Below, piece after piece: positions 25,225 through 43,909 of a DNA stretch of 64,000 bases. The notes below the pieces were generated by a model. That model was not told the origin of the DNA. It worked only from the letters and a program-made list of their open reading frames with translations, and ran no database searches. Where the stretch lies: NCBI GenBank assembly GCA_049719955.1, contig JBNARC010000003.1:9953-73952 (forward strand), given 5' to 3'. Made by a program: the position numbers and the translations under genes. Source of the DNA: Moorellales bacterium. Lineage in GTDB: Bacteria; Bacillota; DSM-521; Neomoorellales; SLTJ01. The number at the start of each line of letters is the position of its first letter. Position 1 is the stretch's first letter.

Positions 25225-26414
25225 TGGCAGCAGCACTGGAAGACGTGATAGTAGTAGACGTGACCCAATTTGAAGCGGGCACTGTGTGCACGGAAACCCT
25301 GGCCTGGCTGGGGGCAAAGGTGATCAAGGTGGAGCGGCCCAGAACTGGGGAACAGGGCCGGGCAGACCCCCACCACTTTGTGCTGCTCAACGCTAACAAG
25401 AAGTCCGTGACGCTGGACCTGAGGCATCCCGAAGGCAAGGCGCTCATGATGCGGCTGCTAGAGCGCGCTGATGTCTTTGTAGAGAACTTCCGCCCGGGTG
25501 CCATTGAACGGTTGGGATTTGGCTACGAAGTGGTACGCAACATTAATCCGCGAATAATCTTTGCCCAGATTAAGGGCTTCGGCAGCGATGGGCCCTACGC
25601 CAGGTTCCCGGCCTTTGACTCCATAGGCCAGGCAACAGGGGGCCTGGCCAGCATCACCGGTGAACCGGACGGCCCTCCGTTGCATGCCGGAGCCAACATA
25701 GCCGATAGCGGCACGGGTATTCATTGCGTAATTGGCATCCTCGCTGCCCTATATCAAAGGACGAGAACCGGAGTGGGCCAGAGGATCGAGGTGGCAATGC
25801 AGGATGTAGTGATAAACTTTTGCCGTTCCTCTTACGGGTGGCAGGCCATGACCGGAGAACCAGCTCCTCGCGTAGGCAACGGTATGCCCATGATGCCGGT
25901 TGCACCTTGTGGAGCCTACCCCTGTCGTCCGGGAGGGCCTAACGATTACATCTTTATTTACGTCTCGCGTTGGCCGGGCAGCAAGCAGTGGGAGCGGCTA
26001 TTGGAGGTGATGGGCCGCACCGATCTCCTATCCGATGCGCGTTTTGCCACTCCGGAGTCGCGGTACGAGTACCGGGCGGAATTGGACGAGATAATTAGTT
26101 CCTGGACCCGGCAAAAGACTAAAGTGGAGGCTATGGAGGAACTGGGGCGCGCAGGGGTGCCGGCGGGTGCGGCTTTTAGTACCGTGGAACTCTCTGCTGA
26201 TCCCTATCTGCGAAGCAGAGGAATGTTTGTGGACGTAGAATATCCGGGCCTCGGCTCGATTACCGTCCCAGGCTTTCCGCTAAAGATGTCGGGGTCTTTT
26301 GTACCCATCACCCCGGCGCCATTACTCGGGCAGCACAATCAGGAAGTATACGAAGGAATGCTCGGCATTTCTCCAGAGGAACTTGAACGGCTGCACAATG
26401 CCGGGGTCATTTGA
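25224..26414 (+). CDS. Family III (CaiB/BaiF, formyl-CoA transferase-like) CoA-transferase
   Basis: LAWLGAKVIKVERP, NANKKSVTLDL, DVFVENFRPG, catalytic Asp region GANIADSGTG, APLLGQHN; TAATG overlap with the upstream gene. Confidence 0.92.
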   Translation: MAAALEDVIVVDVTQFEAGTVCTETLAWLGAKVIKVERPRTGEQGRADPHHFVLLNANKKSVTLDLRHPEGKALMMRLLERADVFVENFRPGAIERLGFGYEVVRNINPRIIFAQIKGFGSDGPYARFPAFDSIGQATGGLASITGEPDGPPLHAGANIADSGTGIHCVIGILAALYQRTRTGVGQRIEVAMQDVVINFCRSSYGWQAMTGEPAPRVGNGMPMMPVAPCGAYPCRPGGPNDYIFIYVSRWPGSKQWERLLEVMGRTDLLSDARFATPESRYEYRAELDEIISSWTRQKTKVEAMEELGRAGVPAGAAFSTVELSADPYLRSRGMFVDVEYPGLGSITVPGFPLKMSGSFVPITPAPLLGQHNQEVYEGMLGISPEELERLHNAGVI

Positions 26415-26473
26415 GGGAAGGATGGAGTTGGCTCTTGGTGGTGGGCTTGACCAATCAACGAGGAGGTAACGCG

Positions 26474-27580
26474 ATGTCGGCTCTGAGCCTCCTAGCCGTT
26501 GGTGACGTCATTCTGGGGGCCAACGGGGAATGGCTTCTCAGCCTTGCTGCTCCTGTACTTCATGAGGCAGACGTCGTGGTTGGCCAGCTGGAAGTACCCT
26601 ATACCAAGAGAGATCCGGAGGCGTTGGCCCTAGAGCGTGAACCGGATAACTTGGCCGCGCTAGTCTCTTCAGGATTCGACGTGTTGACTCTTGCCAGCAA
26701 CCATCTTTGGGATGCCGGGCGGGCGGGGATAGAGGATACTCTGGCCTGGCTTAGGGCTCACAACCTTGGCTTTGTGGGCGCGGGAATGAATCTCTACGAG
26801 GCAAGACAACCCTGGATCGTGGAACGGAAAGGTACGCGGTTTGGTTTCTTGGCCTATAACTGCGTGGGTCCAAGGGAAACCTGGGCCACGCCTCGCCGTC
26901 CGGGTTGCGCTTACGTGCACATTATCACCCATTACGAATTAGACCATGCCACGCCCGGCGGACCTCCGGCCATTTATACCTGGGCCGAGCCCGCTAGCCT
27001 AGAAAACATGTGTGCGGACATTCGGAACCTGCGTTCATCATGCGATGTATTGGTGGTTTCATTGCACAAAGGCATAGGGCATACGCGTGCCAAGCTCGCT
27101 GCGTATGAATATCAAGTTTCCCATGCGGCCATAGAAGCGGGAGCCGACATCGTCCTAGCGCATCACGCCCATATGCTGAGAGGTGTCGAGGTATATAAGC
27201 AAAAAGCGATCTTCCATGGGCTGGGCAACTTTGCAGTCTTCCTGCCAAGCTCGGCCCTTGGTTCAGATGAGGATCCACAATCTTGGGCCCGGAGAAGAAA
27301 GGAGTTGTTCGGGTTCGAGCCTGATCCAGAATGCCCTACCTACCCGTTCCACCGCGAGGCGAGATATACCATTATCGCGAAATTCCTGGTGAAGGAGGGC
27401 AGGATATTCCGTGCCGGTTTCCTTCCTTGCTTGATCAACAGGTATGGCCAGCCGGTGGTTGTACCGCGAAAGGAGGGAGGCCAAGAGGTTTTTGATTACA
27501 TGGAGGCTATTTCTAGGGAGGCAGGCCTAGATACCAAGTATGGATGGGAAAAAGACGAGATTGTTGTCGGACTCAGGTAG
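26474..27580 (+). CDS. CapA/PGA_cap family metallophosphoesterase-fold protein 1
   Basis: AVGD, GQLE, LASNH, SLHKG, AHHAH, GLGNF motifs; AGGAGG RBS before ATG 26474; no signal peptide. Confidence 0.87.
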   Translation: MSALSLLAVGDVILGANGEWLLSLAAPVLHEADVVVGQLEVPYTKRDPEALALEREPDNLAALVSSGFDVLTLASNHLWDAGRAGIEDTLAWLRAHNLGFVGAGMNLYEARQPWIVERKGTRFGFLAYNCVGPRETWATPRRPGCAYVHIITHYELDHATPGGPPAIYTWAEPASLENMCADIRNLRSSCDVLVVSLHKGIGHTRAKLAAYEYQVSHAAIEAGADIVLAHHAHMLRGVEVYKQKAIFHGLGNFAVFLPSSALGSDEDPQSWARRRKELFGFEPDPECPTYPFHREARYTIIAKFLVKEGRIFRAGFLPCLINRYGQPVVVPRKEGGQEVFDYMEAISREAGLDTKYGWEKDEIVVGLR

Positions 27581-27660
27581 TTCTTTTCCAGTGTGATTAG
27601 TTTGACTTGGCTATACTGAGCGGTCTATGACGCCAAACACAAGGGTTAGGAGGGAATTGT

Positions 27661-28767
27661 ATGCCGCGACGGAAAAATATGCCACGGCGGAAAGCAAGCC
27701 AAATAGTTTCATGGGTACTGCTGCTGGCTGTGGGTCTTCTCTTCTTGGCGGGCGGTTGCGCCAAGTCCGAGACCATTTCGCCGGCACCGGGTGAGCAGCA
27801 GGAACAGCGGCAGCAGCCGCAGCAGGCGCCGATCGAGTTAACGTATGGTTCCATCCAGTCTGCATCTCACCATTATTCCAAGGCAGACCAGGCATGGATC
27901 GATAAGATCCACAAGGAGACCGGGGGGCGCGTCCGCATTACGCCGTATTGGGACGGCACCCTGATCAGCCCGGAAGAAAGTGTAGCCGAGCTCCTCCAAG
28001 GAGTAGCTGACATCGGTTATCTGGCGCCAGGCTACAGTAAAGCGGGCTTTGAAATCCATAAGGGTACCCTAGGATTCTACTACGGTATTCCGGGTTACGA
28101 CGATAGGCTACGAATATACGCAGAAACTACGGCCAAGTTTCCCCAAATTGAAGGAGAGTTTGCTGGGATTAAAATCCTGTGCAGATCCGTAGGGTCGACT
28201 TACCAACTCATCAGCACGAAGCCCGTGAGGGAATTGAAGGACATGCGAGGTTTGAAGATAAAGGGCACAGGCGTATATAACGAGGTAATCAAAGCCTTGG
28301 GAGCAACACCGGTCTCCATGCCCATGACCGAGGTGTACATGGCGCTGGATAAGGGAACCATTGACGCCTGCTTAGCACCCTATGAGACCCTGAAGGGCTT
28401 CAAGTTTGCGGAGGTTGCAAAATATGTTACTGTCTTGAACCTTGCCGGTTCTGTTTATCCGACGCGAGGTATGAACATGAAGAGCTGGGAAAAGCTACCT
28501 CCAGATATTCAGAAGATCTTTGAGGACAATATTGAATTTTGGTCTAACGAAGACAAGAAGTGGAGAGCGGCCGTTGATGATGAAGGGATAGCGTTTGGCA
28601 AGGCACAAGGGGTCGAGTTTATTGAGTTGTCGCCTGCGGATCAGCAGAAATTGGAGGAAGTCGTAGGAAACGTAATGAAAAAAGAGGCGGAAAAGTTGGA
28701 TGCGCTAGGCCTACCCGGAACGGCCATATTCCAAGAGGTCCGCCGCATTGCCGATACGCTGAGGTAG
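27661..28767 (+). CDS. dctP: TRAP transporter substrate-binding lipoprotein DctP (copy 1)
   Basis: Lipobox LAGGC, ETGGRV, LGATPVSMPMTEVYMALDKGTID, WEKLPPDIQK. Confidence 0.9.
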   Translation: MPRRKNMPRRKASQIVSWVLLLAVGLLFLAGGCAKSETISPAPGEQQEQRQQPQQAPIELTYGSIQSASHHYSKADQAWIDKIHKETGGRVRITPYWDGTLISPEESVAELLQGVADIGYLAPGYSKAGFEIHKGTLGFYYGIPGYDDRLRIYAETTAKFPQIEGEFAGIKILCRSVGSTYQLISTKPVRELKDMRGLKIKGTGVYNEVIKALGATPVSMPMTEVYMALDKGTIDACLAPYETLKGFKFAEVAKYVTVLNLAGSVYPTRGMNMKSWEKLPPDIQKIFEDNIEFWSNEDKKWRAAVDDEGIAFGKAQGVEFIELSPADQQKLEEVVGNVMKKEAEKLDALGLPGTAIFQEVRRIADTLR

Positions 28768-28967
28768 CGAGAGGCATTAACGGGTGGGGGGAGGGGGGTG
28801 GGGGCTCTTCTCAGAGGGCTACCCGCCCCCGGTTCCTGCAATTTCTCGTTGCTGCTAGGTACGCGCGAGGGACGCGATTTCTACAAATCAGGGGGACGTT
28901 CTGTCTCGGTCCTTTAGTAAGGCTCGGTCTTGGCGATCAGAACACGCGTAAGGAGGACGGGAGCGGA

Positions 28968-29453
28968 TTGTCACTAATTAAACTGGTTAAGCATGGTGAC
29001 AAAGTAGGAGGGTGGATAGGGCTAGTCTTCATACTGGCAGCGATGGCCGTCACCGTGGTAGCCATTCTATTACGTTTCATTAAGATTGGCTTCCCAGGAA
29101 GCTATGACCTGACCGAGATGTTTACAGTTGCGGCAGTAGGCTTTGCCCTCTTTCGAGCCACACTGGAAAAAGGACATGTTACGATGACGCTACTCGTGGA
29201 ACGCCTGCCACGACGCTTTCAGATAATCTCCGAGAGGTTCGCCTGGCTGGTCACTCTTGGCGTGTGGGCTCTGGTCGCCTGGGCAGCCTTGGACATCGCC
29301 TTGGAGAGAGGGTTGGGTGAGCGCACGGTCGGCGTATCTATCCCCTGCCTTCCGTTTCGGGTTCTTTGGCTATGTGGCCTATTGCTTCTGTGCGTCGCCG
29401 CCTTGGTGAACTTCATTGAGAGTATAAGGGTGAAGGGGGGGCACGACGAGTGA
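28968..29453 (+). CDS. dctQ: TRAP transporter small permease DctQ (copy 1)
   Basis: 4 TM helices, PGSYDLTE, GHVTMTLLVERLP. Confidence 0.88.
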   Translation: MSLIKLVKHGDKVGGWIGLVFILAAMAVTVVAILLRFIKIGFPGSYDLTEMFTVAAVGFALFRATLEKGHVTMTLLVERLPRRFQIISERFAWLVTLGVWALVAWAALDIALERGLGERTVGVSIPCLPFRVLWLCGLLLLCVAALVNFIESIRVKGGHDE

Positions 29454-30751
29454 CCCATATAGCAGCCGCTGTTATTGGCTTGGTGGTGCTGTTTGCCCTG
29501 CTATTTGCGGGCCTCCCCGTTTCTGTGGCTATGTTGCTCGTCGGTCTTGCCGGCCTGTGGGCGCTGATTACACCCAGTGCCGCGATAGCGAAACTCGCGA
29601 TTGCACCTTTCCAGACCGCGTGCAGCTACGACCTGGCGACGTTACCCCTCTTCCTCTTAATGGCGAACGTGCTCAACTATACGGGCCTAGGCCGAGACCT
29701 ATTCAACCTAGCCTACAAGTGGGTGGGCCGCCTGCCTGGCGGCGTCGCCATCACCTCCCTCGTTTCTTGCGGTATGTTCGGCGCCGTTAGCGCCTCCAGT
29801 ATAGCAACGGCTGCGACCATAGGGGCAGTTGCCCTTCCGGAAATGAAGCGGCTGGGCTACCGCAAGAGCCTGGCAGCAGGTGCCGTTGCTGCCGGCGGCA
29901 CTCTGGGTTCACTTATCCCTCCGAGCGGTCTGCTTATCATCTACGGCGTGCTGACCGAGACCTCCATCGGGAAGCTGTTTCTCGCCGCCTGGATGCCGGG
30001 CATCATAGCGGTGGCACTGTACTCGGCTGCTACCTACATCGTCTGTCGGGCTGACCCTAGTGCAGGGCCCCCAGGAGAGGGATCCACATTTAGGGAGAAG
30101 ATTGCGGCGCTCAAGAACGCTATAGAGGTAATATCCATGATGCTCGTGTTGATAGTCGGTCTCCTGGTAGGATGGTTTACGCCCACCGAGGCGGGTGCTA
30201 TTGGAGCCTTCATGGCCATACTGTCGGCGGCAATTCGGAAACGTCTAACCTGGGCGGGATTGAAAGGAGCCATAGACTCTACGTTGCGAAATGCAGGCAT
30301 GGTTTACGGAATCCTAATTGGCGCCAAATTGTTTAACTACTTTCTTGGGAGTACCGGTTTTCCCGGTTGGTTGTCCAAACAGGTTGCCGGCCTGCCCCTT
30401 TCTCCGGTGGGCGTTGTATGGATAATTACAGCAATACTCCTGCTGTTAGGCATTGTTATGGACGAAGGTGCAATGCAGGTATTGACCATACCCATCCTGT
30501 TTCCCGTTATTGTGCACCTCGGCCTTGACCCATTATGGTTCGGAATCCTCACGACCAGGCTTATCCAAATAGGCATGATCAGTCCCCCGTTAGGAATTAC
30601 CATGTTTGTGGTTGGTGGCCTTGATCGGGAACTCTCTATGACCGAAGTCTACCGAGGCGTGATCCCCTTCCTAATTGCGGATGCCGTATTCTTGTTGCTT
30701 CTGGTGTATGTACCCGAGATCGCCTTATTGCTACCGTCCTTGGGCGCTTAA
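29450..30751 (+). CDS. dctM: TRAP transporter large permease DctM (copy 1)
   Basis: LPLFLLM, ALPEMKR, AGGTLGSLIPPS, DPLWFGIL, ISPPLG. Confidence 0.92.
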   Translation: MTHIAAAVIGLVVLFALLFAGLPVSVAMLLVGLAGLWALITPSAAIAKLAIAPFQTACSYDLATLPLFLLMANVLNYTGLGRDLFNLAYKWVGRLPGGVAITSLVSCGMFGAVSASSIATAATIGAVALPEMKRLGYRKSLAAGAVAAGGTLGSLIPPSGLLIIYGVLTETSIGKLFLAAWMPGIIAVALYSAATYIVCRADPSAGPPGEGSTFREKIAALKNAIEVISMMLVLIVGLLVGWFTPTEAGAIGAFMAILSAAIRKRLTWAGLKGAIDSTLRNAGMVYGILIGAKLFNYFLGSTGFPGWLSKQVAGLPLSPVGVVWIITAILLLLGIVMDEGAMQVLTIPILFPVIVHLGLDPLWFGILTTRLIQIGMISPPLGITMFVVGGLDRELSMTEVYRGVIPFLIADAVFLLLLVYVPEIALLLPSLGA

Positions 30752-30860
30752 TCTATCTGCAGAAATGTCAGGGGCGGACAGTAGGGAGGTGAGAGATTCG
30801 AGGCAATGGACACCCCGAGGTTTTGGCGCTTTAGGAGTAGACGGGAGGGGTTGACGAGTA

Positions 30861-30900
30861 GTGCCCGAGATAGTGTGTTAGTACCCGAGATAGTGTGTTA
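30861..30900 (+). repeat. Tandem 20-bp repeat (2 copies, 1 mismatch) upstream of GRE1
   Basis: GTGCCCGAGATAGTGTGTTA / GTACCCGAGATAGTGTGTTA. Confidence 0.9.
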
Positions 30901-30966
30901 GAAAGGGTGGGCCTAGAAGCAGGAAGGGCTACCCGCCCTCTGGTTCTGGTAAGGAGGTGACTTGAT

Positions 30967-33402
30967 TTGGAGGCCCTGCAGAACCTTAATGGCTCGATTA
31001 GACTTTCAGATAGACATTCGGAAAGGATTGACCGGCTAGTAAGGAGCATTAGGAGGGAACGGTTCCCCCTTTGCATGGAGAAGGCACGCCTTATTACGGA
31101 ATCGTACAGACAGACCGAGGGTGAGCCGGAAATATTGCGGGCAGCGAAAGCATGGGCTCACCTCTTGGAGCGCTTCCCTATTTTTATCCAAGACGATGAA
31201 TGCATAGTGGGAGAGGGAGCTAGTAAGCCCTGGGGTGTAGAACTTGATCCTTTTTTGGGCGTGTGGGACGAGGGCCTAATTCGGGACGCCGAGCGCGACG
31301 GAGTTGTCGAGGTAGCACCGGAGGACTGGGAATTGATACGGGAACTGGGCTCGTACTGGAAAACCAGGTCCGTCGAGTATCAGCGCGGCAAACGCTATAG
31401 CCAGCGCATATGGGAGTTTCTACAACTGGGAGTCACCCTGCCGCCGATGGAGAAAAGAGAGGAGTTTCGCGGGCCCTATGCGGGGAGCGGCCTCTGCCTC
31501 TACTTCAATTTTACCGATGGCAGGTTGGACTACGAAAGATGGCTCGGCGGTTTGAACAATATCCTGCGCGAAATAAGGGAAGAACTGGAGGCTCTAAGAA
31601 TTCTCTCGGTTGCCGACGCCCAGAAGAGGCTGTTCCTTGAGGGGGCGGCAATCGTATTAGAGGCGATTAAGAGGCTTGCGGCCCGGTACGGCGAACTGGC
31701 GGCCAGTATGGCGGCTAGCGAGGAGAACCCTGCCAGGAAGTCGGAGTTACTTAAGATTGCCGAGGCCTGCCGCTGGGTACCGGCCAACCGGCCGCGCAGT
31801 TTCTATGAGGCCATGCAGTCTTTCTGGTTCCTGCAGCTAGTTTCTACTCCTACTTCCACCCAAAACCTGGGCAGGTTCGACCAGTTCATGTATCCCTTCT
31901 ACCGTGCCGACTGGGATAAGGGTGAGCTTTCGGATGAAGATGTCCTGGCCCTGTTATGCGAGTTAAGAGTCAAGTGCATGAGGCCCGAGAACATCAAGAT
32001 TTCTCCCCAAAAACGTATGCAGCACGGCGGCTTCGCCAAATGGCGGGTAATGACTATTGGCGGAGTAACACCCGAGGGGAACGATGCCACCAACGAGCTA
32101 ACCTACTTAGCGCTGGAGGCCGCCTCCCGAGTAAGGACTCCGCACCATACCATCGCCCTAAGGGTACACGAGGGAACGCCAATGGCGTTAATGGTGAAAG
32201 CCCTGGAGGTGGTGCGAACCGGCATTGGCATGCCGGCGTTTGCCTCCGATAGGTCTTATATTGAGTATTTCCTGGCCGCCGGGGTTCCCCTAGAAGAGGC
32301 CCGAAACTATCACATTGTCGGGTGCGTCGATCCCGCCATACCGGGCAAGGTGAGCGCCCTTGCCGGCTATTTCTTCGTTCTGCCTAAGGTTCTTGAGATC
32401 TTCCTTAACGGGGGAGTAGATCCCAGAACCGGGATAGAGTTGTGCCCGTACAAGGTGGATCCCAACTCCTTTACCACCTACGAGGATTTTTTCAAGGCCT
32501 TCAAAGAATACCTGGCGTACTTCATAGCTCTGTGGACCGAGAGTATGTACATTGCGCCCGAAGTGCTTTACTATCACTATTTCGTTGAAAATATGTTGAT
32601 GCACGATAGGATCCAGGTGGGCAAATCGTTTTACGAACATCCGGGAGCATATCCCTACAATTTCTGTGCCCGGATGATACCGGTAGGGATCATGAACGTA
32701 GTGGACTCCCTCGCAGTCGTAAAGAAGCTGATATTCGAAGATAGGAAACTGAGCATGGAGGAATTGATTGAAGCTCTAAAGGCTAACTGGAACGGTTTTG
32801 AGGAAGTACGGAAGATGTGCATGTCTGCGCCTAAGTACGGCAACGACGACGACTACGTAGACGGGATAGCCAAAGAACTTTTCAGGTTCATTGTGGCCGA
32901 AGAGGCAAAGTATCGGGGGGTTAACGGTGCAAGGGTTTGTGGCGTAGGCGGGGCATCTATTACCTCCATGTGGCCTGGAGGAGCGGTTACGGGTGCGACT
33001 CCCGACGGACGCCGGGCGGGCGAAGTAGTAGCTGACGGAACGGTATCTCCGGTCCAGGGGAGAGATAGTAAAGGGCCAACGGCGGTTCTTAAGAGTGCCT
33101 CGAAGATAGATCAGGTGTTGTGTGCCTCGACCTTGTTGAACATGCGTTTCCACCCTTCCGCCCTCAAGAGTGAGGACGATCTTAGGAAGCTGGCCATGCT
33201 CATTAAGACCTATTTCAACATGGGCGGAAAGTGGATTCAGTTTAACGTAGTCAGCCGAGAAACCCTGCTTGACGCGCAGCAGAATCCCGAGAAATACCAA
33301 GACCTAGTGGTGAGAGTGGCAGGGTATAGCGCCTATTTTGTTCAGTTAGGTAAAGCCCTTCAGGATGACATCATAGCGCGCACGGAGCACGACCTCCGAT
33401 AA
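30967..33402 (+). CDS. Glycyl radical enzyme 1 (PFL-like family, unassigned subclass)
   Basis: 811 aa; GRFDQ, Cys loop HIVGCVDP, PKYGNDDD, GATPDGR, Gly loop VVRVAGYSAYF. Confidence 0.93.
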   Translation: MEALQNLNGSIRLSDRHSERIDRLVRSIRRERFPLCMEKARLITESYRQTEGEPEILRAAKAWAHLLERFPIFIQDDECIVGEGASKPWGVELDPFLGVWDEGLIRDAERDGVVEVAPEDWELIRELGSYWKTRSVEYQRGKRYSQRIWEFLQLGVTLPPMEKREEFRGPYAGSGLCLYFNFTDGRLDYERWLGGLNNILREIREELEALRILSVADAQKRLFLEGAAIVLEAIKRLAARYGELAASMAASEENPARKSELLKIAEACRWVPANRPRSFYEAMQSFWFLQLVSTPTSTQNLGRFDQFMYPFYRADWDKGELSDEDVLALLCELRVKCMRPENIKISPQKRMQHGGFAKWRVMTIGGVTPEGNDATNELTYLALEAASRVRTPHHTIALRVHEGTPMALMVKALEVVRTGIGMPAFASDRSYIEYFLAAGVPLEEARNYHIVGCVDPAIPGKVSALAGYFFVLPKVLEIFLNGGVDPRTGIELCPYKVDPNSFTTYEDFFKAFKEYLAYFIALWTESMYIAPEVLYYHYFVENMLMHDRIQVGKSFYEHPGAYPYNFCARMIPVGIMNVVDSLAVVKKLIFEDRKLSMEELIEALKANWNGFEEVRKMCMSAPKYGNDDDYVDGIAKELFRFIVAEEAKYRGVNGARVCGVGGASITSMWPGGAVTGATPDGRRAGEVVADGTVSPVQGRDSKGPTAVLKSASKIDQVLCASTLLNMRFHPSALKSEDDLRKLAMLIKTYFNMGGKWIQFNVVSRETLLDAQQNPEKYQDLVVRVAGYSAYFVQLGKALQDDIIARTEHDLR

Positions 33403-33513
33403 ACGAGGCTGAAGTAGGGACACCGGAAAGGCAAATGTAAAGCCCAAGAAGGGGTAACAGGCCCCACGAAAGAACGAGTGTAGTTGCGCGGAGTAGGGTA
33501 AGGAGGGACTATC

Positions 33514-34635
33514 TTGCAAGGGAAAGTAATCCTGCTGGCAGTTGGGGATATTGGGCCGGAGCGTGAAGATCCTTCAACGATATTTGATTGCGTAAGGGGC
33601 TATCTGCAAGGCGCCGACGTTGTCTTTGGCCAACTGGAGGCCGTTCTTTCGCATCGAGGTAGCCAGCTACCACAGGCGCGGCTGGCCTGCCGGGCCCAGC
33701 CTGCGGTAGCCAGGGCGCTGAGGGAGGCCGGCTTCACGGTTATATCCTTTGCGAGCAATCACTGCATGGACTTGGGACGTGAAGCTTTCTTCGATACCAT
33801 AGACGCCCTCCAAGAGCAGGGGCTGGCAGTAGTGGGGGTCGGCGCCAACATTGAGGAGGCCCGCAAGCCTGCATTCATCGAACGAAAGGGTACGCGCCTG
33901 GCGTTTCTCGCCTATAATTCAATCCTGCCGTACGGTTACTGGGCGCAGACCGATCGCCCCGGCTGCGTCCCTCTTAGGGCTCATACGTATTATGAGCAGA
34001 TCGAGCACGACCAGCCCGGTACCCCCTGCCGCGTGCATACCTTTGCCCACCGGGGGGACCTGGAGGCTATGGTAAGAGATATTGAAGCGGCCAAGCGGAA
34101 CGCAGACCTGGTCATAGTATCAATCCACTGGGGGATCCATTTCATACCCGCGGTCATTGCCGACTACCAGCGGGAGATTGCCCGCGTGGCCATCGATCAC
34201 GGTGCCGATCTGATTTTGGGCCACCATGCGCATATACTCAAGGGGATAGAGGTCTACGCCGGCAAGGCGATATTTTACAGTCTCTGCAACTTCGCCCTGG
34301 AGCTGCGCGCTACTCCGGAGCTTCTTCAAAGTCCACGGCATAAGGAGATCGAGGTACTCAACCCGGATTGGGTACCGGACCCGGAGTACCCTACGTATTT
34401 CCTGCCGCGCGATTCCCGAAAGACGGCGGTAGCGAAGTGCGTGATCGACGAAGGCCGCATCGCCGCGGTATCGTTCCTCCCGGCGTACATTAACCCCCAG
34501 GCTCAGCCGGAGATCTTAAGCTCCGAAGACCCGCGTTTTGGAGAAGTATTGGAATACATGCGCCGAATCACTGCGGATCAGGGCCTAAACGCGACATTCC
34601 GGGTTGAAGGTGACGAAGTCGTTATCAAGGGGTGA
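33514..34635 (+). CDS. CapA/PGA_cap family metallophosphoesterase-fold protein 2
   Basis: AVGD, GQLE, FASNH, SIHWG, GHHAH, YSLCNF; clear paralogue of 26474-27580. Confidence 0.87.
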   Translation: MQGKVILLAVGDIGPEREDPSTIFDCVRGYLQGADVVFGQLEAVLSHRGSQLPQARLACRAQPAVARALREAGFTVISFASNHCMDLGREAFFDTIDALQEQGLAVVGVGANIEEARKPAFIERKGTRLAFLAYNSILPYGYWAQTDRPGCVPLRAHTYYEQIEHDQPGTPCRVHTFAHRGDLEAMVRDIEAAKRNADLVIVSIHWGIHFIPAVIADYQREIARVAIDHGADLILGHHAHILKGIEVYAGKAIFYSLCNFALELRATPELLQSPRHKEIEVLNPDWVPDPEYPTYFLPRDSRKTAVAKCVIDEGRIAAVSFLPAYINPQAQPEILSSEDPRFGEVLEYMRRITADQGLNATFRVEGDEVVIKG

Positions 34636-36023
34636 AGGACGTGGCGTCCGTGAACGCCTCGCGGGCGATAGCCGAGCATGTTTCCTCCGTCCGCTTCGAG
34701 GATCTTCCGGCGGAGGCGGTAGAGGCTGCCAAGAAGTCCATCTTGGATAGCGTGGGTGTCATCCTGGCAGCCTCTACACTTGGAGAAGGGTGTCGCCCAT
34801 TCGTAGAATTAGCTCTGGAGGCCGGGGGCAAGAAGGAGAGCACCATAATGGGATTTGCCGCCAAGGCGCCCTCCTTCATGGCCGCCTTTGCCAACGGTTC
34901 GATGGCTCATGCTCTAGATTATGAAGACACTCATGACGTTGCCCTGGTTCATCCCAGCGCCGCCACCGTACCGGCAGCCCTGGCAGTTGCCGAGGCGGTA
35001 GGCGGGGTATCCGGTAAGGCACTGTTGGCGGCGGTGGCGGTGGGGAACGACCTGGTATGTCGGCTGGGTCTGGCGGCAAGGGTAGATTCCCGAGAATACG
35101 GATGGTACATGCCTCCCATTCTCGGTGCCTTCGGGGCCGGCGCGGCCGCCGCCTATCTCCTCGGACTTAGTGCGGATAAGGTCCTGGCGGCCCTTTCCCT
35201 AATCCTCTGCCAGGCCACGTGCAGTGCCGAGTTGGTACACAGCCCCAACTCGGACGTAAGAGCGGTGCGGGATGCGTTTTCCGCTAAGGCCGGGGTGCTG
35301 GCGGCGTTGCTGGCCGATAGAGGTGTAAGGGGGTTTGAACGGCCCATTGACGGGGAGGCCGGGCTGTTCGCTTCGTTCTTTCGCGGTCAGTATGATTGCG
35401 AGGTACTTCTTGAGGGATTGGGCCAGGTGTTCGAGGGGGCAAAAGTAAGCTTCAAGCCGTGGCCCAGTTGCCGGGGCACTCACGGTTATATACAGGCCAT
35501 GCTGGAATTACGGGAGGAATACGGACTATCCCCTCAGGACGTAGAAGAGATCAAGCTAACTGTCAGTCCTCTAAATCGAGTGCTATGCGAGCCGCTAGAA
35601 GCGAAGCAGCGACCGACGAACGCCATTGGCGCCAAGTTCAGTTTGCCCTTTACTGTCGGAACCGCGCTGGTCCACGGGCGAGTGGGGCTGGAGCATTTCT
35701 CGTTTGCAGCCTTGGCGGACGAAGAGGTGCTCGCGGTCGCCGCCAAAGTAAGTTTCCAAGTGGATCACTCCCTGGGTGTTGGCGAGTCCACGAGAGGATG
35801 TTTGGAGGTTCGGGCAAAGGGACAGCGGTTTCTCAAGGAGATAGAACGCCCTTACGGGCACCCCGAGCGCCCGATGAAGTTGTCGGACGTAGCGGCAAAG
35901 TTCAAGGCGTGTGCGAAATATGCGTTAGAACCCGTATCGCCAGCGGCAGCCTCTGAGTTTGCCGAGTCAGTTTTAGATCTTGAAAGGGTAGAAGACGTGC
36001 GAACAGTTATGAACTTGCTTTGA
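34632..36023 (+). CDS. MmgE/PrpD family protein
   Basis: AFANGSMAHALDYEDTH...HPSA, FKPWPSCRGTH, AKFSLPF, PYGHPERP. Confidence 0.9.
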   Translation: MKDVASVNASRAIAEHVSSVRFEDLPAEAVEAAKKSILDSVGVILAASTLGEGCRPFVELALEAGGKKESTIMGFAAKAPSFMAAFANGSMAHALDYEDTHDVALVHPSAATVPAALAVAEAVGGVSGKALLAAVAVGNDLVCRLGLAARVDSREYGWYMPPILGAFGAGAAAAYLLGLSADKVLAALSLILCQATCSAELVHSPNSDVRAVRDAFSAKAGVLAALLADRGVRGFERPIDGEAGLFASFFRGQYDCEVLLEGLGQVFEGAKVSFKPWPSCRGTHGYIQAMLELREEYGLSPQDVEEIKLTVSPLNRVLCEPLEAKQRPTNAIGAKFSLPFTVGTALVHGRVGLEHFSFAALADEEVLAVAAKVSFQVDHSLGVGESTRGCLEVRAKGQRFLKEIERPYGHPERPMKLSDVAAKFKACAKYALEPVSPAAASEFAESVLDLERVEDVRTVMNLL

Positions 36024-36209
36024 GAGAGGAGGTGGTAGGAGGCAAAGGTTGTGCCAGCGAGTTCTATTCAGGCGTTAGGCATGTCGCATTGCCGTTTTTG
36101 GAGGGAGGTGATGCGATCCATCTAAGTCGGTAAGGACCCTTGTAGTTTAGTTATCGATGCAGAGGTATCCAATGCCATTTCGAGAATAGCGTTCAAGGAG
36201 GGATACGGA

Positions 36210-37316
36210 ATGAGACTATCGGTCAAATGGGTAGTGATAGCTCTGCTGCTAGTGGCAGTCTTAGCCCTGGGGCTGGTGGGCGGATGCGCGAAATCGGAAC
36301 AGGGCACCGCAAGCACTCAAGGCTCGGAGGGCGCTGCTCAACCGGCCACGCCATCCCCTTCCACCCAAACCATTGTCCTAAAGTTTGCGGCTACCTACTC
36401 GCCGAACCATCCCCAAGCTATTGCTGACCAAGCGTGGTTCGAAAAAATCGAAAAGGAAACCGGAGGGAGGGTAAAGTTCGAACCCGTCTGGGGAGGAGCC
36501 TTGATGAAGGCCGACCAGGCCTTCATCGAGTTGGCCAACGGAGTTGCCGATGTCTCCGAGTTCTCCGGTGCCTACGTAAAGGAAGGCTTTGATATTGAAA
36601 AGGCAATGCGGGTGCTCTTCTGCAACGTACCTGATCGCGAGGTAGCGCGGCGTATATACCATGAGCTTCGGGCAAAGTACCCGCAGATCGACGCTGAGTT
36701 CTCGAAAATCAAGGTGTTAGCCTACCATGCTATCACGCCTTACCAAGTAGCTACAGTGAAGAAACCCATAAGAAAGGTAGGAGATTTCAAGGGGCTAATG
36801 CTAAAGGTCTCCGGCGATCACCTGAAAATAGCCCAAGCCTTGGGCGCTGATGCTTCGCCAATCCCAATGTCGGAAACGTACGTGGCACTGCAAAAGGGAA
36901 CCATTGACGGTGCCATGGTCCCGTACGAAACCTTGAAATCGTTCCGCTTCGGAGAGGTAGTGAAGTACGTCACCGAATTGAATATGGCTACCGGTCCCAC
37001 TCCGCACAGAGGAATGAACCTTAATACATGGAACAAGCTGCCACCGGATATTCAGAAGGTATTCGAAGACAACATTGAGTGGTACGGGAGGAAGATCGAG
37101 GAAGAATTATTCAAGGCAGACGCTAGCGGTATCGACTTTGCGAAGCAGCAAGGAGTAGAATTCATCAAACTCTCAGACGAAGAACTGAAGAAGTATCGCA
37201 ACGTCGTTGACAAAGTCATTCAAGAACAGGCTAAAGCCCTTGACACGAAGGGTCTACCTGGAACCCAGATTTATGAGGACATAAAACGGCTCAGCGATCA
37301 ATACCTAAAGAAATAA
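36210..37316 (+). CDS. dctP: TRAP transporter substrate-binding lipoprotein DctP (copy 2)
   Basis: Lipobox LVGGC, ETGGRVKF, PMSETYVALQKGTIDG, WNKLPPDIQK. Confidence 0.9.
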   Translation: MRLSVKWVVIALLLVAVLALGLVGGCAKSEQGTASTQGSEGAAQPATPSPSTQTIVLKFAATYSPNHPQAIADQAWFEKIEKETGGRVKFEPVWGGALMKADQAFIELANGVADVSEFSGAYVKEGFDIEKAMRVLFCNVPDREVARRIYHELRAKYPQIDAEFSKIKVLAYHAITPYQVATVKKPIRKVGDFKGLMLKVSGDHLKIAQALGADASPIPMSETYVALQKGTIDGAMVPYETLKSFRFGEVVKYVTELNMATGPTPHRGMNLNTWNKLPPDIQKVFEDNIEWYGRKIEEELFKADASGIDFAKQQGVEFIKLSDEELKKYRNVVDKVIQEQAKALDTKGLPGTQIYEDIKRLSDQYLKK

Positions 37317-37488
37317 CCCGGTAAATGGTCCATCCTCCCGGTGTGCGCGGGAAACGTGTGCAGACGCAAAGCAACGATTATTGCGCTTGGAGCTGCTCGG
37401 CTCACGTTCCCGCGCTACCTCCTCGTTTTATGGCGGGGGAATGCACCCGGTACGGGCCAAAGGGCGGTTGAGGAGGTAAAAAGATTTC

Positions 37489-37968
37489 ATGCTCAAGCTT
37501 ATCCGAACTCTTGACAGATTTGGTGCCGCCGTGGGGGGAATTTTTCTAATAGCAATGGTGGTCCTTACGGTAGTAACTGTTCTGTCTAGGCTTAGCGGGG
37601 TCGCCATGCCGGGCAGCTACGAGTTACTGGTTCTACTTGTTGTTATTCCTGTCGGTTTCGCGCTTTTTGGAAGTACCTGGGCAAAGAGACATGTGGTTAT
37701 TGAATCTTTGGTAGAGCACCTGCCCCAACGGGCGCGGGCTGTCCTTGACCGGTGGGCGTGGGCGGTCAGCCTACTCTGGTGGATTCTAACCGCTTGGGCA
37801 GCTTTCGACATCACCCTAGATAAGGGTCTACAAGAACGCACTGAGGTCCTTAACCTTCCTTTTCTACCCTTCCGCCTAGTTTGGATTTTCGGCCTAACAC
37901 TTGTCTGTATTGCCTCGTTGCTACACCTGTTAAAGGTAAGAGAAAGGGAGGGGGATACTAGTCAATGA
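37489..37968 (+). CDS. dctQ: TRAP transporter small permease DctQ (copy 2)
   Basis: 4 TM helices, PGSYEL, RHVVIESLVEHLP. Confidence 0.88.
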   Translation: MLKLIRTLDRFGAAVGGIFLIAMVVLTVVTVLSRLSGVAMPGSYELLVLLVVIPVGFALFGSTWAKRHVVIESLVEHLPQRARAVLDRWAWAVSLLWWILTAWAAFDITLDKGLQERTEVLNLPFLPFRLVWIFGLTLVCIASLLHLLKVREREGDTSQ

Positions 37969-39266
37969 GTTCCATAGCGGTAGCAACTGTCGGGCTTGTT
38001 GCGATGTTTGCTTTGCTGCTGACCGGTGTTCCGGTCGGTGTAGCTATGGGCGTAGTGGGGCTTTTTGGGCTTTGGGCTGCAGTTTCCGAGAGCGCAGCTA
38101 TAATCAAATTGGCAGTGGTACCCTTTCAGACAATAACCAGCTACGATTTGGCAAGCCTCCCCCTATTCCTTTTTATGGCCAATGTTTTTAATTATTCCGG
38201 TATGGGACGGGACCTGTTTAATCTGGCCTACAAATGGCTAGGACGTCTTCCCGGTGGTGTAGGGCTAGCGGCTATTGCAGCGTGCGGGGGTTTCTCCGCC
38301 ATAAGTGCTTCCAGCATCGCCACGGCCGCGACTGTAGGGGCAGTAGCTCTCCCCGAGATGAAGCGCTTTAAGTACGACGATCGGCTGGCCACGGGCTGCA
38401 TCGCCGCTGGTGGTACTATCGGCACTCTTATACCGCCAAGCGGCATCTTGATCATTTACGGGATACTGACGGAAACCTCTATCGGAAAGTTGTTTCTCGC
38501 CGGCTGGATACCGGGTATGTTGGTAGTCATACTCTATGCAGCAGTGATTTTCATTATTTGCCGATTCGCTCCTGCGCTCGGGCCCCGGGGAGAGACGTCC
38601 ACGCTTCGCGAGAGGTTTCTTGCTCTCAAAGGCTGCATAGAGGTAATAGGGGTGATGCTATTCCTACTTATTGGCCTACTGGTAGGGTGGTTCACAGCCA
38701 CCGAGGCAGGGGCCGTCGGTTCCGCGGCCGCTATCATCTCCTCCTTATTCAGGAAAAAACTCACCTGGGAAGGGTTCACCAAGGCTATATGGTCTAGCTT
38801 ACGCACCTCTGGTATGATCTATGGTATCCTTATTGGCGCATTCATGTTTAATTACTTCTTGGCGTCTACTGGGTTTCCCACTTTTCTCTCTCAAACCATA
38901 ACCCACCTGAACTTGTCGCCTCTAGGTGTCATAGGAATGATCATACTGATATTCTTGATCCTTGGAACTCTGTTGGATGAGGCGGCGATGCATGTGCTTA
39001 CTATACCCATCTTCTTCCCTGTCATCCAGCATTTAGGGATAAACCCGATATGGTTCGGTATACTTACCACTAGGCTCGTAGAAGTAGCCATGATTAGTCC
39101 GCCTTTAGGCGTAACAATGTTCGTAGTTAAAGGACTTCAGCCAGAGGTACCCATGGCAAGAATATACCAGGGCGTGATACCTTTCCTGATTGCGGATGCG
39201 GTTTCTCTGCTACTCCTCGTGTTTATTCCAGAACTGGCGTTGTTCTTGCCGAACCTTGCCCGGTGA
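37965..39266 (+). CDS. dctM: TRAP transporter large permease DctM (copy 2)
   Basis: 433 aa, same length and motifs as copy 1 (AGGTIGTLIPPS, NPIWFGIL, ISPPLG). Confidence 0.92.
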   Translation: MSSIAVATVGLVAMFALLLTGVPVGVAMGVVGLFGLWAAVSESAAIIKLAVVPFQTITSYDLASLPLFLFMANVFNYSGMGRDLFNLAYKWLGRLPGGVGLAAIAACGGFSAISASSIATAATVGAVALPEMKRFKYDDRLATGCIAAGGTIGTLIPPSGILIIYGILTETSIGKLFLAGWIPGMLVVILYAAVIFIICRFAPALGPRGETSTLRERFLALKGCIEVIGVMLFLLIGLLVGWFTATEAGAVGSAAAIISSLFRKKLTWEGFTKAIWSSLRTSGMIYGILIGAFMFNYFLASTGFPTFLSQTITHLNLSPLGVIGMIILIFLILGTLLDEAAMHVLTIPIFFPVIQHLGINPIWFGILTTRLVEVAMISPPLGVTMFVVKGLQPEVPMARIYQGVIPFLIADAVSLLLLVFIPELALFLPNLAR

Positions 39267-39331
39267 GCTTTGCGGCTGTGGCCATACGCCGACGATAGAA
39301 CCGCCAGGAGATTGAGGAGGGGAGGACGGGC

Positions 39332-40528
39332 ATGGGCAAGAGGCCGGCAAGAGAACCGATATGGACCAGGGACTTCTGCTTAGTATGCTTTTCTTCTTTT
39401 TTGATCCATATTTCCATGCACATGCTCATGCCCGTGCTACCCGGTTACGTTCGGTCTTGGGGAGTAGGGGAAGGGTTGGCAGGCGCGGTGACCGGCGCAT
39501 TTGCCATTTCTGCACTTGCTACCCGTCCCGTAACGGGCCGCGAACTAGACAGGCGCGAGAGGAGGCCGGTTTACTTAACCGGACTGGCGCTGTTCGTGGT
39601 AGCCGCCTTCGCCTACCCCTGGGCATACAACCCCGGATCGGTACTCGGGACCCGGGTACTCCAGGGGTGTGGCTTCGGAATAGTATCCACCGCGGCAGGT
39701 ACCATCATAACCGACCTTCTCCCCCCCAAACGTCGAGGAGAGGGAATGGGATACTTCGGCCTCTTCAACAGCATTAGCACGGCTGTGGCGCCTGCCACCG
39801 GAATCTATCTGGCGTCTAACCTGGGTTACTACTGCCTATTTTATGCGGCCGCTGCCCTGGCGGTGGCGGCATTGTTGTTGGCCGCGGGCCTGTCACGCGG
39901 ACAGGTTGTATCTCACAGAACAGAAACCTATTCCAGGTTGGCCATCTTTGAGCCGGGGGCGGCTCCTGCCTCCCTGGTTGCCCTGTTTGTATCGGTGGCG
40001 TATAGCTCGGTTGTTACTTTCATCCAGATATATGCGAGCATGAGAGGGATTGCCAATGTTGGGGTCTTCTTTACTGTTTATGCTACTGTTATGATAGCTA
40101 TTCGATCAATATGCGGTCGCATTTACGATCTTTGGGGACCGACTCCGGTGGTAGCTCCCGGACTGGTTTTGATGGCAGGCTCCCTAACGCTGATCGCCCA
40201 TGCCTCGGGGCTAAAGGCACTCATCGTTGCTGCGGTTTTGCTTGGGCTGGGATTTGGGGCGGCTCAGCCCTCCCTGCAAGCCCTGGCAGTAGCCAAAGTT
40301 CCGCCTACGCGGCGTGGGGCGGCAAACGCCAACTTCTACTCCGCCCTCGATATAGGCCTGGGCGGCGGGTCTGTGCTCTTTGGCTTGGTGGCCGAGATGG
40401 TGGGCTACCCTTCAATGTACCAGACGGCCGCAACGGTGCCTCTGGGGGGTATAGGGGTCTACTTGCTTATGATACGTTTCTGGCGTAATACTGAGGACCC
40501 GAAAAACATGACCGTGGAGGTGAAGTAG
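39332..40528 (+). CDS. MFS transporter
   Basis: ~12 hydrophobic segments, GRELDRRERR motif A variant, RVLQGCGFG, PPKRRGEGMG. Confidence 0.88.
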   Translation: MGKRPAREPIWTRDFCLVCFSSFLIHISMHMLMPVLPGYVRSWGVGEGLAGAVTGAFAISALATRPVTGRELDRRERRPVYLTGLALFVVAAFAYPWAYNPGSVLGTRVLQGCGFGIVSTAAGTIITDLLPPKRRGEGMGYFGLFNSISTAVAPATGIYLASNLGYYCLFYAAAALAVAALLLAAGLSRGQVVSHRTETYSRLAIFEPGAAPASLVALFVSVAYSSVVTFIQIYASMRGIANVGVFFTVYATVMIAIRSICGRIYDLWGPTPVVAPGLVLMAGSLTLIAHASGLKALIVAAVLLGLGFGAAQPSLQALAVAKVPPTRRGAANANFYSALDIGLGGGSVLFGLVAEMVGYPSMYQTAATVPLGGIGVYLLMIRFWRNTEDPKNMTVEVK

Positions 40529-40529
40529 G

Positions 40530-42926: not shown

Positions 42927-42976
42927 GGGTCGGTGAAACCACTCCCCACTCATTACTTTGGGAGGAATGAGCCATC

Positions 42977-43909
42977 ATGCCAAACGCTACCGTCGAATCC
43001 GTGCAAGGAGTAATCTTTAACATTCAGCGGTACTGCATTCATGACGGTCCGGGGATCCGCACCACGGTGTTCCTAAAGGGCTGCCCTCTGCGGTGCGTCT
43101 GGTGCCAGAACCCTGAGTCCCAAATGGTACAGCCCGAAGTTTTCTTTAACCGGGAAAAGTGCGTTGGCTGCGGCCGGTGCGCCGCCGTCTGCCCCAACGG
43201 AGCCATCGAGATCCACCAGGGGAGGGCCAGGACCGACCGGGGGCGGTGCAAAGGAACGGGCAAGTGCGCGGAAGCGTGCCCCAATGAAGCAAGAAGCCTC
43301 ATGGGACGCTATGTGTCCGCGGGCGAGGTTTTTCGCGAGGTTGCGGAGGACGAGATATTCTACGAGGGTTCCGACGGTGGAGTCACCCTGAGCGGCGGCG
43401 AGCCGCTGGCTCAGCCGGAATTTGCTGCGGCCGTCCTCAGGCTATGCAAGGAAGCCGGCATTCACACCGCGGTGGATACCTCTGGGTACGCCAGGTGGGA
43501 AACGGTCAAGGAGGTACTTGATTACGCCGACCTGGTGCTCTTTGACTTCAAACACATGGACTCTGCGGAACACCAGAGGCATACTGGCGTGCCTAACTAC
43601 CTCATTCTTGAGAACGCGAAGAGGATTTATCGAGAACTAGGCCGGCCCATGTGGGCGCGGATTCCGGTAGTGCCAGGGTACAACGACACGGAGGAGAATG
43701 TCCGGGCCACGGCCGAGTTTATAGCCCGCGAACTTGATAACCTGGTCAAGGTCCATCTTCTGCCGTACCACAAGATGGGAGAAGTGAAGTACGACCGCCT
43801 GGAAAGAAGGAACGGGGCCTTGGGGATAAAGCCGCCGAACGAAGAGAGGATGGCCGAGCTAAAGGGGATCGTAGAATCCTTCGGGCTAGAGACAGTTATT
43901 GGCGGCTAG
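42977..43909 (+). CDS. Glycyl radical enzyme activase (radical SAM) with ferredoxin-like insert
   Basis: HDGPGIRTTVFLKGCPLRCVWCQNPES (CX3CX2C), insert CVGCGRCAAVCP / CKGTGKCAEACP, GGVTLSGGEP, LLPYH. Confidence 0.95.
   Translation: MPNATVESVQGVIFNIQRYCIHDGPGIRTTVFLKGCPLRCVWCQNPESQMVQPEVFFNREKCVGCGRCAAVCPNGAIEIHQGRARTDRGRCKGTGKCAEACPNEARSLMGRYVSAGEVFREVAEDEIFYEGSDGGVTLSGGEPLAQPEFAAAVLRLCKEAGIHTAVDTSGYARWETVKEVLDYADLVLFDFKHMDSAEHQRHTGVPNYLILENAKRIYRELGRPMWARIPVVPGYNDTEENVRATAEFIARELDNLVKVHLLPYHKMGEVKYDRLERRNGALGIKPPNEERMAELKGIVESFGLETVIGG

Follow-up and report, generated by a model that had tools for sequence, protein, structure and literature searches.

We have analyzed a 64,000-nucleotide stretch of DNA, referred to here as the window, from a Moorellales bacterium of the phylum Bacillota (GenBank assembly GCA_049719955.1, contig JBNARC010000003.1, positions 9,953 to 73,952 of the forward strand); coordinates below are those of the window unless another contig or locus is named. 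The gene under study, GRE1, encodes the catalytic subunit of a glycyl radical enzyme (GRE) in which the residue two places after the catalytic cysteine (Cys+2) is aspartate, at the position of the glutamate of the known GRE eliminases. It lies in an array on the forward strand together with a paralogue, GRE2, a GRE activating enzyme (AE, or activase) and genes for transporters and other enzymes (Table 1). GREs perform chemically hard reactions without oxygen, and many GRE clusters are known among specialists to be unassigned. Judged by its sequences, the clade to which GRE1 belongs is a large group of genuine GREs with an altered catalytic motif, and no characterised member of it was found.

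The GRE1 gene and its product

The GRE1 gene begins with a TTG codon behind a Shine-Dalgarno-like sequence, and its frame is open across 811 codons. The predicted protein matches the Pfam families PFL-like (PF02901, aa 19-656, 513 bits) and Gly_radical (PF01228, aa 692-792, 116 bits). An AlphaFold2 model made from a 61-sequence alignment has a mean predicted local distance difference test (pLDDT) score of 86.7 and a predicted template modelling (TM) score of 0.90, with weaker stretches around aa 350-360, 530-570 and 650-700. Foldseek aligns this model to solved GREs with TM scores of 0.87-0.89 at 31-33% identity, the top matches being 1R8W (glycerol dehydratase, GDH), 5I2A/5I2G/9RCO (propanediol dehydratase, PD) and CutC. 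GRE1 thus has the features that define the superfamily: the barrel with the glycine radical domain, an RVxG[FWY] loop and a Cys-loop cysteine.

The original prediction, made from the sequence, had singled out three elements of this protein, and all are present where it placed them. The Cys loop GCVDP is encoded by GGG TGC GTC GAT CCC, with GAT as the Asp codon; the RVAGY loop at aa 783-787 is intact; and the segment LVSTPTSTQNL ahead of GRFDQ is altered, the loop being shortened. Cys453 and Gly786 are invariant in alignments of 61 and of 54 sequences, and the mean column identity across the 54 GRE1-type sequences, from several phyla, is 76%. A search for sequencing runs containing the GRE1 gene found none.

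Assignment to known GRE families

GRE1 scores below the cut-offs of all eight full-length GRE equivalogs in NCBIfam (bits/cut-off: HpsG 532/1000, HypD 495/1100, CutC 480/1050, PRK09983 478/1109, IAD 467/1100, HpfG 434/1000, HPAD 362/1150, PFL TIGR01255 119/994). It is also below that of the PFL2-3 subfamily TIGR01774 (591.8 against 678.2). No models for PAD or AAD appeared in the NCBIfam output for GRE1. GRE1 is therefore a real GRE that falls in no curated functional family. Chemistry of the PFL/TdcE type was rejected because the V-G-C-V-D loop has a single Cys; two Cys-loop cysteines occur in PFL and TdcE only, according to a recent review (Imrich et al., June 2026, PMC13450708).

According to that review, a C-x-E motif with the Glu hydrogen-bonded to the substrate is kept by all six C-O eliminases and by CutC, the three C-S lyases and the three isomerases. 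Compared with the set of GRE 1,2-eliminases and isomerases (glycerol dehydratase, PD, HypD, CutC, IslA/IseG, HpsG, HpfG, YbiW, PflD and HplG), GRE1 lacks this motif and has C453-V-D455 instead. The review also gives Glu505 for HPAD, Glu502 for IAD and Gln for PAD, and a study of IAD describes Cys500, Glu502 and an E502Q variant made 'to mimic PAD' (PMC9248008). The GCVQ loop that the original prediction ascribed to IAD is consequently a mistake: IAD has Cys500-x-Glu502, and the Gln belongs to PAD. Variants altered at the Glu, IAD E502Q and those at CutC E491, lose turnover but retain the radical. The loop of AAD (7E7L) is GCVL. In six alignments to PDB entries, Cys+2 is Glu in 1R8W, 5I2A, 5YMR, 7VUA and 8YJO, Leu in 7E7L and Asp in none.

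No close homologue of known function with C-x-D is found in NCBIfam, the six PDB alignments, the 2026 review or the text searches. The latter returned no paper describing a C-x-D GRE, although they did not extend to supplements, where GRE similarity-network tables could name the cluster. Among the papers listed for GREs in Dehalococcoidia none deals with the clade, judged by titles and the starts of abstracts, and in a search swamped by unrelated matches none of the papers listed links the glycyl radical with PrpD, CapA, PGA_cap or MslH. The earlier proposal of an active GRE of a different class thus stands in so far as GRE1 is intact, has an activase in its array and belongs to no characterised class; that the shorter Asp would suit a larger substrate stays a prediction.

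A clade with aspartate at Cys+2

Among the matches listed, G-C-[V/L/I]-D is present in 120/120 homologues of GRE1 (57-100% identity), with Dehalococcoidia, Bathyarchaeia, Desulfobacteraceae and 'Deltaproteobacteria' as named sources. A sequencing quirk or error at the Asp codon is ruled out because Asp is conserved across these homologues. A library of 50%-identity representatives searched with GRE1 gave 9,648 proteins at E <= 0.001 and 2,131 at E <= 1e-30. A tree of 246 sequences over 783 kept columns was computed with FastTree, rows shorter than 700 aa being excluded. Its rows are GRE1, GRE2, the third GRE of the genome, those of the best 150 representatives that reach 700 aa, 11 GRE1-type homologues, E. 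coli YbiW and PflD, and 87 GRE open reading frames (ORFs), again of 700 aa or more, out of genome loci.

A single 77-leaf clade, with a local support of 0.99, takes in both GRE1 and GRE2; 71 of its members have C-x-D. The tree has 75 C-x-D sequences altogether, and the four outside the clade (P0191, P0224, P0233 and P0241) are scattered; the state switches between D and non-D at least 8 times. The named anchors in the tree are all outside the clade: E. coli YbiW and PflD, the true CutC P0273 (1601 bits) and the GDH/PD-type P0238, which scores 814 bits on TIGR01774. Clade members occur in genome loci of Chloroflexota (11), Bacillota (10), Acidobacteriota (6), Spirochaetota (5), Thermodesulfobacteriota (5), Myxococcota (4), Pseudomonadota (2) and Actinomycetota (1). 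The clade thus spans at least 8 bacterial phyla, and source annotations name Bathyarchaeia too. Taken together, the alignments and the tree indicate that the Asp is a character of the clade and not noise.

The clade members with other residues are P0124 and one ORF of locus L028 (C-x-E), one ORF of locus L025 (C-x-A), P0136 (C-x-G), P0142 (C-x-P) and P0225, in which the Cys is lost. In P0225 the catalytic Cys is replaced by Ala (DIAGALSIAIPG) and the Gly loop has degenerated to RLGGGS; the protein is probably a non-catalytic derivative. P0124 branches as the direct sister of the GRE1-type group and adjoins GRE1-type genes in loci L096 and L097. The tandem of a P0124-type protein (GCIEV/GCIEA) with GRE1-type C-x-Asp genes in these two loci is a natural pair for the comparison of Glu with Asp. 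Neither P0124 nor the outside-clade proteins P0125, P0132, P0134, P0143, P0146 and P0156 match any equivalog.

Residues of the active site

The statements on the pocket made here are mappings by alignment, not model coordinates, and they become unreliable in the beta-1 region, for which HMMER and MAFFT give different alignments. C433 and E435 of GDH align with C453 and D455 of GRE1. P0273 served as a ruler for CutC, and the residue numbers of D. alaskensis CutC all fit P0273 at an offset of +2. By this ruler, CutC C489, E491 and G821 align with C453, D455 and G786. CutC Phe395 (GDH Tyr339) is replaced by Trp359 in GRE1, and CutC Tyr506 by Phe469. The pre-GRFDQ loop, of the type ESNGHSIS where it carries His281/Ser282 of GDH, was aligned against a GDH/PD-type representative, YbiW and PflD; it is three residues shorter clade-wide and reads PTSTQN in GRE1. 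P295 and T298 do not vary within the GRE1 type; at position 299 most GRE1-type proteins have His, and 7 of 121 sequences have Gln. GDH Asp447 and CutC Thr502 map to a deletion in the clade, and the beta-1 segment with GDH His164 and CutC Asp216 has a longer, differently aligned insertion in its place.

Residues conserved in at least 85% of the clade and rare outside it include Arg334, Arg350, Ala357, Trp359, His393, Asp455 and Arg558. Arg350 is found in 100% of sequences inside against 10% outside, and Arg334 in 97% against 7%. The pair K/R358-W359 takes the place of P/M-Y/F, with Lys at 358 in GRE1 and Arg in GRE2. GRE1 fits the signature of the clade in its placement, C-x-D, R350, A357-x-W359 and shortened loop, the exception being His for Arg558. 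By these alignments the diol- and choline-binding apparatus is absent from the clade, and because clade-specific basic residues are present as well, an anionic substrate would fit.

The gene array around GRE1

Table 1. Coordinates of GRE1, its sequence elements and the other genes of the array
Feature	Position in window	Strand	Basis or remark
GAF / GGDEF-like / PucR-helix-turn-helix regulator, head of array	20068-22398	+	Pfam
Fused two-domain HGD-D protein (2-hydroxyacyl-CoA dehydratase / double-cubane reductase-like)	22732-25224	+	Pfam, two stretches
Family III CoA-transferase	25188-26414	+	Pfam; formyl-CoA-transferase-like, 368 bits, below cut-off of 442
PGA_cap protein A	26411-27580	+	Pfam
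Tripartite ATP-independent periplasmic (TRAP) transporter A (DctP 27661-28767, DctQ 28968-29453, DctM 29450-30751)	27661-30751	+	Pfam; directly upstream of GRE1
Shine-Dalgarno-like AAGGAGGTG	30951-30959	+	7 nt upstream of GRE1 TTG; read from sequence
GRE1 (811 aa, GRE catalytic subunit, C-x-Asp clade)	30967-33402	+	ORF, Pfam, AlphaFold2 model
GRE1 shortened loop LVSTPTSTQNLGRFDQ, aa 291-306, before GRFDQ	31837-31884	+	Alignment to ESNGHSIS-type loops
GRE1 Cys-loop stretch HIVGCVDPAIPG, aa 449-460	32311-32346	+	
GRE1 Cys loop G452-C453-V454-D455-P456	32320-32334	+	Thiyl Cys453; Asp455 at Glu position of known eliminases
GRE1 Gly loop R783-V-A-G786-Y787	33313-33327	+	Gly786 = radical glycine
PGA_cap protein B	33514-34635	+	Pfam, 223 bits
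MmgE/PrpD family protein	34632-36023	+	Pfam; under all PrpD equivalog cut-offs
TRAP transporter B (DctP 36210-37316, DctQ, DctM)	36210-39266	+	Pfam
Major facilitator superfamily (MFS) transporter	39332-40528	+	Pfam
GRE2, C-x-Asp paralogue (GGCLDV), 798 aa, 50% identical to GRE1	40530-42926	+	
GRE activating enzyme (radical S-adenosylmethionine), presumed activase for GRE2 and GRE1	42977-43909	+	TIGR02494, 370 bits, cut-off 174

The activase gene follows GRE1 at a distance of 9.6 kb, on the same strand. Three GREs and two activases are encoded in the genome, which measures 2.16 Mb and is 99% complete. The third GRE, of 848 aa with a C-x-A loop, is located with its own activase on contig C5 (92420-96050; loci L002 and L085); it is outside the C-x-D clade and under all NCBIfam equivalog cut-offs, and by these comparisons it is likewise uncharacterised. 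Because there are two activases for three GREs and the third GRE has its own, we infer that GRE1 most likely shares the activase of GRE2.

The HGD-D fusion protein has 830 aa and shows weak NCBIfam matches to double-cubane reductase, HadB/HadC and BzdN/O models. No gene for an ATP-dependent HGD-D activator was found in the window; four BcrAD_BadFG genes are on other contigs. The two PGA_cap genes are the only ones of the genome, and their products match only the MslH lasso-peptide C-terminal epimerase model NF038314, weakly (88 and 118 bits for A and B against a cut-off of 700). For both DctP proteins the nearest solved binding protein is 4N6D, followed by 4PGN/4PGP and 4NAP.

Within 15036-45669 the array is located between housekeeping genes, with smc, ftsY, ffh, rimM, trmD, lepB, a ribosome-biogenesis GTPase gene and rnhB upstream and a ComM/Mg-chelatase-like gene (44134-45669) at the downstream flank. 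The array has a lower G+C content, 0.53-0.57 against 0.58-0.62, and could be a catabolic island that was inserted here. Immediately before the regulator, at 16089-19493, are a DUF1015 gene on the minus strand and OAD_beta (18180-19493), for the beta subunit of a Na+-transporting decarboxylase. An exact 18-bp direct repeat, CCCGAGATAGTGTGTTAG, is present in two copies 20 bp apart at 30864-30901, about 65-100 nt upstream of the GRE1 start. It has no further copy in the window within 3 mismatches, with 0.01 expected by chance, and may be a candidate operator for the regulator of the array. A promoter and terminator scan over 26000-44500 gave counts not above those of shuffled sequence.

Recurring neighbours of clade members

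Genes in 158 loci (78 genome and 80 metagenome) were labelled by BLASTP to the window proteins (E <= 1e-10, at least 40% coverage); this overlooks unrelated functional analogues, and many of the loci are short contigs. A clade GRE is present in 80 of the 158 loci; an activase lies within reach in 44 of these 80, and 47 of them are at least 12 kb long. In these 47 the activase is found in 31, a second clade GRE in 15, PGA_cap in 12, PrpD in 12, TRAP parts in 9, the CoA-transferase in 8 and HGD-D in 6; at least one of PGA_cap, PrpD, CoA-transferase and HGD-D occurs in 21. The corresponding numbers for 54 control loci, likewise at least 12 kb long but carrying other GREs, are 38 for the activase, 1 for PGA_cap, 3 for PrpD, none for the CoA-transferase, 1 for HGD-D and 3 for TRAP. 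Parts of the partner set, whose members handle carboxylates and CoA esters, thus accompany clade GREs in many phyla.

Gene order is also repeated in places. Among 15 GRE1-type loci (at least 54% identity), 8 contain a tandem GRE2-type gene or the C-x-E sister, most of the others being short contigs. Arrays of the form AE-GRE2type-GRE1type occur in L007, L012 and L094, and the order GRE1-PGA_cap-PrpD-DctP is repeated in L092 at 61-81% identity. L013 carries an operon-like string of a substrate-binding protein (SBP) gene, OppBCDF, PrpD, a ligase, AE, GRE2, PGA_cap and HGD-D. Strings such as this one tie the partner genes into one pathway.

Unbiased clustering of the neighbours in 43 core genome loci brings out a Dpp/Opp-type ATP-binding cassette (ABC) system with an SBP_bac_5 protein in 12 of the 43. 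MerR regulators, CitMHS/MatC carriers, S15 peptidases, carboxylesterases, acyl-CoA ligases and P450s are each found in 4-7 loci, and TAXI-TRAP, GntR/FCD and MFS genes near clade GREs in single loci each. A cytochrome P450 gene adjoins clade GREs in four genomes (L014 12316-13497, L018 12783-13886, L023 5987-7198 and L040 6611-9847), which, oddly, brings together a family that uses O2 and one that is sensitive to it.

Possible function of GRE1

We consider it probable, if well short of certain, that GRE1 is the working catalytic subunit of a coherent, uncharacterised C-x-Asp clade of GREs that acts on an imported organic acid, with Asp455 as a base or proton relay. The activase of the array would put the radical on Gly786, and the thiyl radical then formed at Cys453 would abstract a hydrogen atom from the imported acid, which is possibly derived from an amino acid or from a 2-hydroxy acid and would be bound through its carboxylate by the clade-specific Arg/Lys residues. 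Asp455 would take the role of the eliminase Glu, hydrogen-bonding to the substrate OH/NH or Cys, deprotonating it or relaying a proton to it. The outcome could be a base-assisted radical elimination, a ring opening or an isomerisation. GRE2 might handle a related compound, a stereoisomer or the next intermediate, the HGD-D enzyme might receive the product in the form of a CoA thioester, and the PGA_cap and PrpD proteins might adjust stereochemistry or hydration. We rank such base-assisted reactions somewhat above radical decarboxylation.

Several points weigh against this assignment. The type of reaction is extrapolated from distant relatives at 31-33% identity, and the tree comes from FastTree only, so its support values call for caution. 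In the MAFFT alignment GDH His164 and CutC Asp216 are opposite a gap across the whole clade (pairwise HMMER puts Asp184 opposite His164), and because they have no MAFFT counterpart, catalysis of the eliminase type by acid and base may not apply. GRE1 itself has His at position 558, where 93% of the clade has Arg. The Asp is not absolutely required, since Glu is found in two members of the clade and something else in four more. Fewer than half of the long loci show the association with PGA_cap, PrpD, CoA-transferase or HGD-D. Finally, in lineages just outside the clade the place of the Glu is taken by Tyr, Leu, Val, Ile, Met or His; in these sequences the variation at Cys+2 looks more like that of the variable decarboxylases (E, E, Q, L) than like the invariant eliminases.

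One alternative is that GRE1 decarboxylates a carboxylic acid by radical chemistry, as HPAD, IAD, PAD and AAD do, with Asp455 as proton donor to the Cys thiolate or a carbanion, a role already proposed for Glu505 in HPAD and Glu502 in IAD. We keep it alive because Cys+2 varies both in the lineages nearest to the clade and in the known decarboxylases, where the literature and the 7E7L alignment give Glu505, Glu502, Gln and Leu (PMC13450708, PMC9248008). The genes are moreover flanked by carboxylate transporters, and a search of the PDB with the 60-aa Cys-loop segment ranks AAD (7E7L) second. The full-length ranking, however, has GDH, PD, IseG and CutC before AAD and HPAD, the scores on the IAD and HPAD models are far below their cut-offs, and the cluster holds no pointer to an arylacetate. 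On balance we regard a decarboxylase as rather unlikely.

We think it very improbable that the exchange of Glu for Asp is silent and GRE1 an ordinary known eliminase (glycerol/propanediol dehydratase, CutC, HypD or sulfonate lyase) acting on a known substrate, even though GDH and PD are the best PDB and fold matches, Asp resembles Glu chemically and two clade members have Glu. GRE1 is under all equivalog and PFL2-3 subfamily cut-offs, and GDH His164 (in MAFFT; HMMER differs), Asp447 and the NGHS loop, like CutC Asp216 and Thr502, have no aligned counterpart. The near-constancy of Asp in the clade and among the listed close homologues is unlike a neutral swap, and no genes of diol, choline, hydroxyproline or sulfonate pathways or of a microcompartment are found in the array. 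Equally little weight is given to a C-C bond former or cleaver like the X-succinate synthases (a hydroalkylase or its reverse) that would feed the family III CoA-transferase as BbsEF does. That proposal would account for the CoA-transferase in the array, for the carboxylesterase, acyl-CoA ligase and P450 genes in some related loci and for relatives in Dehalococcoidia and Desulfobacterota, but over the full length few PDB entries match as weakly as BSS and MASS (E 1e-89 to 1e-92; GDH has 1e-138), small-subunit ORFs were not seen among the labelled neighbours, and the Cys loop of GRE1 is unlike the LCMSP loop that the original prediction gives for Bss. A decayed or non-catalytic paralogue of GRE2 is hardly credible. 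GRE1 lacks an adjacent activase of its own, and the clade member P0225 has decayed at both loops; GRE1, on the other hand, has an intact frame, a strong ribosome-binding site, invariant Cys and Gly loops and a highly conserved sequence within its type (76% mean column identity), and GRE1-type genes occur elsewhere in AE-GRE-GRE arrays.

The reading of GRE1 as a working enzyme for an imported organic acid can be carried one step further. We entertain, with more doubt than belief, that the C-x-Asp GREs catalyse a radical reaction new to the superfamily, in an undescribed anaerobic catabolic pathway with paired paralogues and partner enzymes. Such a reaction might be a C-C or C-N cleavage or the decarboxylation of an aliphatic or amino-acid-derived carboxylate. 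The partners would include the metal-dependent, epimerase-like PGA_cap proteins, the PrpD-family enzyme and the module like 2-hydroxyacyl-CoA dehydratase. If this is true, the new pathway would be widespread in Chloroflexota, Bacillota, Acidobacteriota, Desulfobacterota and Bathyarchaeia of sediments and digesters.

To our knowledge, every newly assigned GRE clade has so far led to a new pathway (choline, hydroxyproline, sulfonates, anhydro-sugars). What is distinctive here is the loss of a 'universal' Glu, the breadth of the clade and a specific, recurring set of partners with paired paralogues. The C-x-D clade replaces the one residue common to all the eliminases and isomerases covered in the 2026 review, which also describes whole GRE clades as still without experimental validation and every archaeal PFL-like GRE as lacking an assigned function (PMC13450708). 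The conserved neighbours point to an undescribed anaerobic breakdown route for an imported organic acid, and the recurring partner genes, together with the two TRAP binding proteins, are a concrete starting point for identifying the substrate.

Comparison with known systems

The best PDB match of GRE1 is the B12-independent glycerol dehydratase of Clostridium butyricum (1R8W/1R9D; E 1.1e-138), which is also the best fold match (TM 0.87/0.90). The two proteins have the same barrel, a Cys loop of the form G-C-V-x-P with one Cys, RVAGY as Gly loop and the GRFDQ/ARFDQ motif. At only 32% identity they differ in several places: Glu435 of GDH corresponds to Asp455, a shorter PTSTQN stands for the ESNGHSIS loop with His281/Ser282, neither His164 nor Asp447 has a secure counterpart, and Tyr339 is replaced by Trp359 and Tyr640 by Gly. 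No genes for glycerol or 1,3-propanediol metabolism are found near GRE1. The second-best match is the GRE 1,2-propanediol dehydratase of Roseburia inulinivorans (5I2A/5I2G; also 9RCO; TM 0.87-0.89), which is the top match to the 60-aa Cys-loop segment. Unlike this Cys-x-Glu enzyme, GRE1 has Cys-x-Asp, is only 31-33% identical to it and stands in an array without microcompartment or aldehyde dehydrogenase genes.

Choline trimethylamine-lyase CutC (5FAU) resembles GRE1 in fold (TM 0.87) and in its alignable Cys and Gly loops. GRE1 nevertheless reaches less than half of the CutC cut-off (480 bits against 1050) and the true CutC representative is outside the clade; CutC Asp216, Tyr208 and Thr502 are opposite gaps in the C-x-D clade, and Trp359 stands for Phe395. 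The arylacetate decarboxylases (HPAD 2Y8N/2YAJ, IAD, PAD and AAD 7E7L) act on carboxylates and are, by the literature and the 7E7L alignment, the only characterised PFL-like class in which Cys+2 is not always Glu; none of them has Asp there, and GRE1 is far below the IAD and HPAD cut-offs. The isomerases YbiW and PflD of E. coli (8ID7, 8YJO) and HplG (7VUA) have a PFL2-type fold, a single Cys and base-assisted radical chemistry, in all of which GRE1 would be comparable to them. In contrast to GRE1, all three keep C-x-E, by the review and by the alignments, and E. coli YbiW and PflD are outside its clade.

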